From the IMG/VR virus record IMGVR_UViG_2974549561_000001, positions 39,446-103,445 of that record: a DNA stretch of 64,000 nucleotides, one strand, 5' to 3'. This document shows, piece by piece, positions 3,001-6,000 of the stretch; the first letter of the stretch is position 1; each line of letters starts with the position of its first letter. The position numbers are program-made. The DNA is from a virus (taxonomy: Duplodnaviria; Heunggongvirae; Uroviricota; Caudoviricetes).

Positions 3001-6000
3001 ATTCTCTATGGCTCTTCAGTTGTATCATGACAAAGAGGCCGCTGCCGCATCACTGATGAATGGTGACGGATTGCTGGAACTGTTATTAGGTGTGGCAAAG
3101 GAGCTAAATAATGCAGATTAAAATCGCAGCGCCATTAGGTGGAGATGCCATTATCGAATTTGATGATAATGAAGAAGTTTCCGGGCGTTTAAGCATTATC
3201 TCCGGTGACATTACCGAGGACATGATCGCTGAAGCCATAGCTGGGGCAAATCCCAATAGCTATATGGGATTCGTTAACACCCTTGATGCTCCCGCAAGTG
3301 ATGTTCTCCGAACGCTGCATCTTTACGCTGGCTGGTTTGTTGATTGGCCAGCAGTAGATGGTGGCGATGAGGACGACGACGACGATGATTTTGGTGATCA
3401 TGTAGACCAGATCGTATATTGAAGAAATCCCGCCAGTCGGCGGGATTTTTTTTAATCGCTTTCCACTTCTTCCGTGGTGTTTTCTTGCAGTTCTGTTAAT
3501 GCAGCACGACATAGGTTCCGGGCATTGGCTATAGCCACACTTTTGACTTCATCCGTCATCGTGCAGGTAATGTACTGATCGAGTTCTTCAGCGCGGATGA
3601 TGCTTTTGCCAATCAGAAACTGTATTTGCCAGAGCAGATCGGCATCCATAATCAGAATTTCTGCCGGGCCTTCAGGGCCAGCCGGGAAGGAAACATAAGA
3701 CTGTTTGCCCAGGCCGACAACTCGACAACTTGCTTCAAGAATTGCGCGCTTGAGGTCTGACTTTATAACGGAAACAGGTTGATTTTCACCAGTGATTACG
3801 CCGTTGACATGGAAAGGCATGTAGCTTGAAATACGCTCCACTTTCCACACGCCAGCAAGCGATCCTTCATGCAGCACAATGGGGGTAACCGCGAGTTTCA
3901 TCTCACCATATAGCTGCTGGCAGATAGCTGGATTGCTGAATACATCTAAAGGCTCACATTCAAACAGCGGCGCAATCTGCATGAGGTCCATCATGGTCAT
4001 CCCTGGGGTACGAGCAGTAATGAATCTGCGCATACCAGTATCCATTGCGCTCCAGATTGCTACACCATGCTTTTTGCTCACTTCTTCAGTAAAGCCAAGG
4101 TGGCACATGATGGTTTTTTCGATAGCCAGATCAGAGATCGAAACCTTTTCGCCAGGCACACCATCATTATTGATGGTCACTTCGACACTCTGACCATTAC
4201 GCAGGCGGTATTGAATTGCTTTAGTATTTTCCATGTTAAATCACTCCACTACAAACCAGTCACATGCCAGTAAGTCGCCTACAGAAGGAACCCACGGAAC
4301 AACTACACCTTGTGCATTTTTTAAGGCGAAATAAGCACCATACGGAACGAGGTCGCCGGGGAAATATCCCTTAATGGCTTCCATTCGTGCCGGGTACTGT
4401 CCTTCAGGAACCAGCCAGCAGAATTGGTTTTCGCCGTTCCACCCGCGTCGGGCAACTTTCTTGCCATCCTTCAGCCACATCAGCGCGTCAGAAAAGTCGG
4501 CTGCTTCAAGGTCGATTTCTTCTTGTAGAGTAGCGATACCGCCAGCAGAAATAGTTACGTCCCTGGCTGTAATGAATGTCACCCCATTGTGACCTTCAAT
4601 GCTGAGCGATACCCCATTTTCGAAGAAGTCGTTAGTCCGACTAAAGCCTTCTTCAAATGTTTTTTCTGGTGAATAGGACAGAGAACCGTCCTCATAAGCG
4701 ACCAGATATCCGCCAATTTCTGGTCGGTGTTTTTGCAAAAATATTTTATCAACATGGACTTTTACCCCTTCTGGCTCAACGACTTCGATGTTGCAAAAAA
4801 GGACCACATCCATTAGGGCGATAATTTCGATATCTTTGATTTTTGAGGCGCGAACTGTTTTATGGCTTTTGTATTTTGGAAGTGCCGTAAAAAGCTCTTT
4901 CGTTGTCATGTTATTCATAGTCTTTCCTCTGCTTAAAACCTGATGTATTGCGCCTTCAGGTGGGTCAGGAATGTTTTCCCACCAGCGAACGCAATATCTC
5001 GGGGTGTTCTTTTCGTGAAAAGCGCGTGCCATTGCCAACTTTGGCGTTTGTTTGCGAGTTCGTGCTTTTGTCGGCGTCTGGACCATCGCTTTTCTTTCAG
5101 TCGTTTTTTACACATTCAAAACGGAATATCGTCGTCAAAGTCCATTGGAGGTTCGTTATTGGCGTTGCTCTGAGGTTTACCGCCACCACTGTATTGCTGG
5201 TGGTTTTGAGGTTGGTTTGATTGCCCCCAGCCATTTGAGGACTGTGAATCGTCACGGCGAGCGCCGATCATTTGCATGGTGCCGCCCTGGCTGACGATAA
5301 TTTCCGTCGTGTAACGTTCTACACCGGCGTCATCTGTCCACTTACGGGTTTTAAGTTTCCCTTCGATGTAGACCTGAGAACCTTTTCGTAAATACTCACT
5401 CGCAATTTCAGCAAGTTTTCCGAACAAAACGACTTTATGCCATTCTGTTTGCTCTTTCTGTTGGCCCGTTTGCTTGTCGCGCCATGATTCATTCGTTGCG
5501 ATGCTGAGTCTTCCGACCGCTCCGCCATTTGGTATATACCTGATCTCCGGGTCTTGCCCCAGGGTACCAATCAGGATGACTTTGTTTACACCGCGTTGTG
5601 CCATTTATCTTACCTAATAAAATAAATTAATTAGAGCAATAATGTATATCTTTGAAACGTAGCTAACAAGTGATTTGCATTATCCTATGCCTTCTAAAGG
5701 GATCGAGTCAGTCGGTATTGGCTGTGAATGGGTGTTTGTCCTGGAGCGTAAAAAATTCGCTTATGAGGTCTTTATGAAGGGAAAAACAGCCGCAGGAGGC
5801 GGTGCAATTTGCGCTATCGCGGTGATGATTACCATCGTGATGGGTAATGGCAATGTGCGAACCAACCAGGCGGGGCTTGAGCTGATTGGTAACGCTGAAG
5901 GTTGCCGACGTGATCCATACATGTGCCCGGCAGGGGTATGGACTGACGGGATCGGTAATACACACGGGGTAACGCCGGGTGTGCGAAAAACAGACCAGCA

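Follow-up and report, generated by a model that had tools for sequence, protein, structure and literature searches.

We found, in a 64,000-nucleotide stretch of DNA from the IMG/VR virus record IMGVR_UViG_2974549561_000001 (positions 39,446 to 103,445; hereafter the window, meaning this whole stretch), a gene coding for a 225-amino-acid (aa) protein in which a predicted homolog of the phage L decoration protein Dec is followed by a Tad2-like domain. The window represents a P1-type phage-plasmid (Punavirus) around this gene, which lies behind ssb in a presumed operon controlled by the C1 repressor. The best explanation of the gene, and one that we consider likely, is that it specifies an early-expressed signal sponge of the Tad2 type with a separable Dec-like companion module; an anti-defense function is a well-founded candidate for it. 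The gene and its parts, named from the open reading frame (ORF) list and the sequence, are the following:

4241-4918, minus strand: coding sequence of the 225-aa Dec-like/Tad2-like fusion (stop codon 4241-4243)
4244-4510, minus strand: Tad2-like domain, aa 137-225, with the WNG (W160 N161 G162) and W209-x-P-S212-x-x-D215 motifs
4511-4627, minus strand: stalk or linker, aa 98-136, with short beta-strand repeats aligning to the C-terminal part of Dec
4628-4891, minus strand: Dec-like OB-fold domain, aa 10-97

The initial annotation of this DNA had recognized a DUF2829 signature in the protein by eye. The segment it quoted, FSDALMWLKDGKKVARRGWNGENQFCWLV, corresponds to aa 142-170 (nucleotides (nt) 4409-4495) and lies inside a hidden Markov model match to PF11195 ("Tad2-like") that aligns aa 141-224 with positions 2-73 of the 73 in the profile, with 80.1 bits (E=1.7e-22) against a curated cut-off of 25 bits, which confirms the assignment. 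A phmmer search of the PDB sequences returned ModTad2 as the best match (9eib, 6e-20; 8v3e, 8e-20; 74.9 bits), followed by HgmTad2/AcrIIA7 (4e-10; 42.8 bits) and SPO1 Tad2 (7e-9; 38.8 bits). The closest characterized relative is thus ModTad2, also called MoTad2, from a Myroides odoratus prophage (PDB 8V3E in the apo form, 9EIB with His-ADPR, a derivative of ADP-ribose (ADPR)), to which the domain is 45% identical across all 88 residues with one 1-aa gap, and with which it shares the insertion architecture, the insertion after beta2 (between beta2 and beta3) being of the same length and pattern. SPO1 Tad2 and HgmTad2 belong to the same Pfam family and fold but are more distant and differ in the length of the insertion. 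The structure prediction likewise recovered the Tad2 fold, i.e., an N-terminal helix and then an antiparallel sheet with the insertion after beta2, and a fold search of BFVD with the model gave matches that were mostly uncharacterized or Tad2-like proteins.

The ligand pocket is conserved along with the fold. Mutants of HgmTad2 in W21/N22 and in S90/T92/D93 have been reported to abolish gcADPR binding, and these positions correspond to W160/N161 and S212/G214/D215 of the present protein; six of the seven pocket residues are identical, with W21/N22/G23, W87, S90 and D93 of HgmTad2 matched by W160, N161, G162, W209, S212 and D215. An alignment of 42 homologs shows no variation at W160, W209, D215, D220 or W221, and conservation of S212 in it is 90% or more. 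The residue R31, by which HgmTad2 contacts c-di-GMP/cGG, is replaced by V170 here, as it is by valine in ModTad2, and binding of cGG in the manner of HgmTad2 is therefore not expected. On each feature compared, i.e., profile, fold and pocket residues, the domain is, as judged from its sequence, a member of the Tad2 family.

Characterized members of this family differ in what they bind. SPO1 Tad2 (gp34.65) sequesters 3′cADPR, and HgmTad2 (formerly AcrIIA7) is a sponge for 3′cADPR/gcADPR that also takes up cGG/cGAMP and has very high affinity for the housekeeping messenger c-di-GMP; an anti-CRISPR reading by way of the name AcrIIA7 was rejected, as that activity was not reproduced. ModTad2 sequesters His-ADPR and suppresses Thoeris of type II and not that of type I, and a second pocket in it binds cUMP and cCMP, whereby Pycsar systems, including an E. 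coli Pycsar, are inhibited. Types I, II and IV of Thoeris are all inhibited by Tad2_71. Tad2 is commonly fused to other sponges (Acb4, Sequestin), and one Tad2-Acb4 fusion has been found active. The initial annotation had noted that family members sequester cyclic ADP-ribose signaling molecules; the family membership holds, but the closest characterized relative binds His-ADPR and cUMP/cCMP instead, and type I Thoeris can therefore not be taken for granted as the target. In contrast to MoTad2, which is a stand-alone protein of 88 aa, the domain in the window sits behind a Dec-like module of 136 aa.

We posit that the product is a cytoplasmic, modular anti-defense protein that would be expressed early. 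By analogy with solved Tad2 proteins, its C-terminal domain (aa 137-225) would form tetramers, the inter-subunit pockets of which would sequester a nucleotide-derived immune signal such that the host effector is never activated. His-ADPR (type II Thoeris) and cUMP/cCMP (Pycsar) are the first candidate ligands because MoTad2 binds them, and other ADPR-derived signals (3′cADPR, N7-cADPR) remain candidates. The Dec-like OB domain and stalk would be a separable companion, serving either as a scaffold or oligomerization unit or as a second signal-binding unit.

As for this N-terminal part, the initial annotation had described an unrelated region of about 125 aa; an additional region is indeed present, but it is about 136 aa long and not anonymous, since profile searches identify it as a homolog of phage L Dec. 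A profile of the full-length alignment matched Dec (6E3C) in the PDB with E=1.9e-6, and a profile of the N-terminal 136 aa alone matched it with E=3.4e-8 over Dec residues 14-130 of 137. These profile matches make the N-terminal region a Dec homolog that has in common with Dec an OB-fold and a repeat-like C-terminal stalk; in the model, aa 98-137 form four short strands at a pLDDT of 45-50, and their counterpart in the alignment is the C-terminal part of Dec. Lockin and TadIV-1 were considered as identities for the domain and rejected, as the PDB profile search matched Dec only; Lockin, moreover, is said not to occur in INPHARED phage genomes, whereas the OB domain is present there.

The OB domain belongs to a very large family. 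Its profile, searched against 1.84 billion cluster representatives, recovered 5013 clusters (defined at 50% identity) at E<=1e-3 and 2626 at E<=1e-10. It is usually a stand-alone protein of ~90 aa. Among the 143 sequences retrieved from the best 150 matches, 46 are stand-alone proteins of <=130 aa, most of them too short for a stalk of the length seen in Dec. None of the representatives scanned gave a Pfam match for the domain. The family displays a polar signature of the pattern C/S-H-K ... K-H ... D-G-Y-x-S-Y-S-P (here C/S18, H19, K20, K26, K63, H64, D77, Y79, S81, S83 and P84), which has no counterpart in Dec; the present protein further differs from Dec in its additional Tad2 domain and in its early or accessory gene context rather than one of head genes. 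The Pfam partners of the OB domain in 135 representatives of <=500 aa were Sequestin (PF21825; 17 proteins), Tad2 (12), Acb4 (PF13876; 5), the Acb2/Tad1 hairpin (4) and RyR (1), along with two marginal hits; all except these two are families of immune-signal sponges or signal degraders. This fusion pattern is the same as that behind the discovery of Sequestin. Given a family so large, absent from Pfam and fused almost only to sponges and degraders, we tentatively suggest that the OB domain (aa 10-97) may be an anti-signaling module in its own right, a sponge or signal-modifying unit built around the polar surface, in which case the protein would be two-headed and directed at two signals. Eight proteins of 1781-4559 aa (P0121, P0122, P0125, P0128, P0133, P0137, P0138 and P0192) each contain 11-28 matches to the N-terminal profile; these could be repeat proteins sharing a GGY...Y...S.SP motif, or compositional matches.

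In all 120 homologs the Tad2 domain starts at a conserved EIDL(E/D)AAD junction, ahead of which are found the Dec-like OB domain, a dUTPase or several unnamed small domains, while Sequestin sometimes follows Tad2. The connection between the OB and Tad2 domains varies among homologs, with two types of stalk, helical or Gly/Ala-rich linkers and linkers that are not homologous to each other, and in P1-like proteins each of three variants of the beta2-beta3 insertion occurs with each of two variants of the stalk, giving all six combinations. Comparison with copies from D6-group elements separates the modules further: the Tad2 part of the window is 100% identical in DNA to one copy (L008) and differs from another (L009) by nine synonymous and no nonsynonymous changes, whereas identity to the D6-group copies falls to 55-88% in the OB and stalk parts, with dN/dS of 0.45-0.53. 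Strong purifying selection thus acts on the Tad2 module, which is swapped as a cassette at the domain junction. Two-module sponge fusions (Tad2-Acb4, Tad2-Sequestin/PF21825) likewise join Tad2 to a small phage module via a variable linker, and the EIDL(E/D)AAD junction is common to many such architectures; in the present protein the partner is the Dec-like OB domain instead. One protein of 241 aa (P0056) is a fusion of a dUTPase to a Tad2 part 98% identical to that of the window; the two are separate neighbors in D6-group elements.

The placement of the gene bears on when it would be expressed. It is encoded on the same strand as ssb, 197 nt downstream of it, and its surroundings are these:

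134-3121, plus strand: ddrB
3111-3422, plus strand: hxr-like gene
3452-4234, minus strand: isaA homolog of 260 aa, 95% identical to aa 60-320 of P1 IsaA
4231-4914, strand not applicable: block the size of one gene, found here but not in P1, by blastn of the window against P1
4919-5115, minus strand: spacer of 197 nt between ssb and the fusion gene, common to P1
4925-4929, minus strand: Shine-Dalgarno-like GAGGA, 6 nt ahead of the ATG, by direct reading of the sequence
5116-5604, minus strand: ssb, lying upstream in the presumed operon (PF00436, E=7e-40; P1 ssb annotation)
about 5607-5669, minus strand: region of the promoters P1ssb and P2ssb, with the P1 annotation transferred via the 98.8% identical block
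5624-5640, minus strand: C1 repressor operator (Ossb/Op21), ATTGCTCTAATTAATTT, one mismatch against the consensus
from about 5773, plus strand: lyz
minus strand: pro and prt
from 9420, plus strand: darB

Homology to P1 in blastn runs from 5689 to 4915 at 98.8% and resumes from 4230 to 3452 at 93.8%; the 684 base pairs (bp) between replace 6 bp of P1, which itself lacks the fusion gene. As the block begins exactly with codon 2 of the fusion gene and ends with the ATG of isaA, its content equals a single gene. Early expression with ssb, which the initial annotation had proposed, is consistent with the single mismatch in Ossb, with the 98.8% identity of 4915-5689 to the P1 stretch with P1ssb and P2ssb, and with the absence of any terminator-like site from the minus strand in the interval from ssb to the fusion gene; the co-transcription that it had stated outright is an extrapolation from these features. 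Because the gene lies behind ssb under C1-controlled promoters, we infer that it is part of the C1-repressed ssb operon and would be silent in the lysogen and turned on at once, early after infection or induction. The C1 operator consensus of P1 has 12 sites in the window with <=3 mismatches, against 0.32 expected; matches lie, e.g., at 30344-30443, 47667-47732 and 60909-60936, and several are paired, the site pairs being consistent with a complete P1-type immunity circuit.

Several points weigh against the sponge interpretation or some part of it. The pocket position G214 departs from both T92 of HgmTad2 and S77 of ModTad2. Specificity varies among Tad2 homologs, which means that the ligand does not follow from 45% identity, and around one in four sponge homologs in a large functional survey inhibited none of seven systems; proteins with a domain like PDB 6E3C were removed from that Tad2 survey, so that this class of fusion had already been noticed by others. 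If the Dec-like stalk trimerizes, as the comparison with Dec might suggest, it would fit poorly with the tetramer needed by Tad2. Regarding expression, a strict sigma-70 scan of 3300-5800 found no promoter and missed even the annotated ssb promoters, so that the argument for co-transcription draws on the P1 annotation and the absent terminator.

Three other explanations were weighed against an early signal sponge. The dUTPase gene directly upstream in D6-group elements and the dUTPase-Tad2 fusion P0056 would fit a Tad2-like domain serving phage nucleotide metabolism or regulation, e.g., by binding a nucleotide or c-di-GMP alongside the dUTPase, as would the very tight binding of c-di-GMP by HgmTad2 and, possibly, BFVD matches named MazG pyrophosphatase and thymidylate kinase, which extend over 89-95 columns only. 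We consider this improbable: the neighbor in the window is ssb, not dut; the c-di-GMP contact R31 is V170 in the alignment, as in MoTad2; most tested Tad2 homologs inhibit at least one defense system; and both domains otherwise have anti-defense modules as their fusion partners.

There is also little reason to expect that the main activity resides in the OB domain or in the downstream IsaA, with the Tad2-like domain reduced to a ligand-less handle for tetramerization or stabilization. The size of the OB family and its strongly conserved polar surface, the conserved pairing with isaA across a 6-nt gap, and the quarter of surveyed sponge homologs lacking a detected target would all be in keeping with such a handle. 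Yet the Tad2 part, with no nonsynonymous changes, is the most conserved segment, and the invariance extends beyond core residues to those of the ligand pocket; forms consisting of stalk and Tad2 only also occur (D6 orf114, P0067). Moreover, the second pocket of HgmTad2 and MoTad2 is lined by the beta2-beta3 insertion, of which three versions are swapped among otherwise similar proteins, as expected if ligand specificity is under selection. The least probable explanation, a Dec-type virion protein whose OB domain binds the capsid and whose stalk trimerizes, so that the Tad2-like domain is displayed, carried or delivered with the DNA, is disfavored chiefly because none of the contexts seen is a structural module, the gene lying in the C1-controlled ssb operon rather than a late or structural one and its Lastavirus-type and D6-group homologs among regulators, dut, cre and toxin-antitoxin genes (non-structural in four other element types), and further because P1 particles are normal without it, the D6 copy keeps stalk and Tad2 but not the OB core, the conserved polar signature is absent from Dec, and the OB domain is combined with sponges of differing oligomeric states or, in 46 of 143 representatives, stands alone at <=130 aa.

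Only 6 nt separate the stop codon of the fusion gene from the ATG of isaA, and the pair is kept at two loci, i.e., after ssb in P1-type elements and after dut in D6-type elements, the latter comprising D6 and D6-group plasmids in which the pair follows cre and a dUTPase gene. A distant element preserves the same order of dut, fusion gene (41% identical) and IsaA homolog (44% identical). The IsaA family is narrow (19 clusters); IsaA gave no match to Pfam, NCBIfam or PADLOC, and its AlphaFold2 (AF2) model from an eight-sequence alignment reached a pLDDT of 36.7. In P1, the neighboring ssb, isaA and isaB are non-essential by CRISPR interference (CRISPRi), which, together with the lack of the fusion gene in P1, fits an accessory gene. 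The D6 copy of the fusion gene (orf114, L004 2594-3034) codes for 146 aa after an in-frame deletion that removed the OB core and kept the first 20 residues, the stalk and Tad2, while other D6-group plasmids have the full 225-aa form.

In Lastavirus-type phages, a homolog lies in a regulator-rich non-structural region beside divergent transcriptional regulator genes, without an IsaA partner. At this one locus, SopranoGao displays the OB domain followed by Tad2, and LASTA the OB domain, another domain and Sequestin. The latter protein, Klebsiella phage LASTA gp52 (L007 2486-3361), has an unnamed middle domain ending in HYACKPDIFEATYEP, which also precedes Tad2 in many homologs (e.g., P0057, P0084 and P0100).

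The region 3000-6400 of the window is 99% identical over its whole length to Escherichia phage vB_EcoM-Ro157c2YLVW in megablast, and about 80% of the stretch is present in P1. The copy in RCS47 (FO818745, 15495-15950, hit H25) covers aa 1-152 only, is annotated as "part 1" and lies beside an inverted repeat; it appears to have been interrupted by an insertion. In P1, IS1 adjoins the same locus, and the ssb-hxr interval has the look of a hot spot for insertions.

The gene model itself is straightforward. The ORF on the minus strand opens at the ATG 4918-4916 and codes for 225 aa plus a stop, and the product is 99.6% identical to Ro157c2YLVW gp12, annotated as a "DUF2829 domain-containing protein". 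A longer ORF of 281 aa, from the ATG at 5086, is unlikely to be the true product because homologs in other contexts begin at the MNNM of the 225-aa form and RefSeq calls that form; M1 is invariant in the alignment of 42 homologs. The ORF that opens at 5086 within the 197-nt spacer is in frame with whichever gene comes next, and the P1 record merges it into a 320-aa "IsaA" (L001 3633-4595). As other IsaA homologs are of 262-264 aa, the start of P1 IsaA is probably M57. An Rfam scan of 3000-6000, the ssb-fusion gene spacer included, returned nothing significant. NCBIfam and PADLOC scans of the fusion protein and IsaA gave no match, and a PHROGs search found families of unknown function only.

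That a Tad2-type gene is present in P1-like elements was already known. RefSeq phage and plasmid records annotate the gene as a "DUF2829 domain-containing protein", and a DefenseFinder screen reported Tad2 in phage-plasmids of the P1 group (56%) and the D6 group (93%) (bioRxiv 10.1101/2025.09.12.675607); these hits probably represent this gene family at the loci seen here. That preprint screened for presence or absence and describes neither how the domains are arranged nor the cassette structure or Dec-like module, and our literature search found no report of the N-terminal module as a Dec homolog, of its association with five inhibitor families or of the cassette structure. The gene is carried by 213 of 5426 complete E. 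coli genomes, in 213 plasmid and seven chromosomal places.

If the function is confirmed, P1 and D6 phage-plasmids would carry an early, exchangeable inhibitor of signaling immunity of the Thoeris or Pycsar type. These elements are frequent among clinical E. coli, Shigella and Salmonella, and such an inhibitor cassette would go some way toward accounting for their host range and persistence. The more valuable lead may be the N-terminal domain, a very abundant relative of a capsid-decoration protein that is attached to five families of immune-signal inhibitors.

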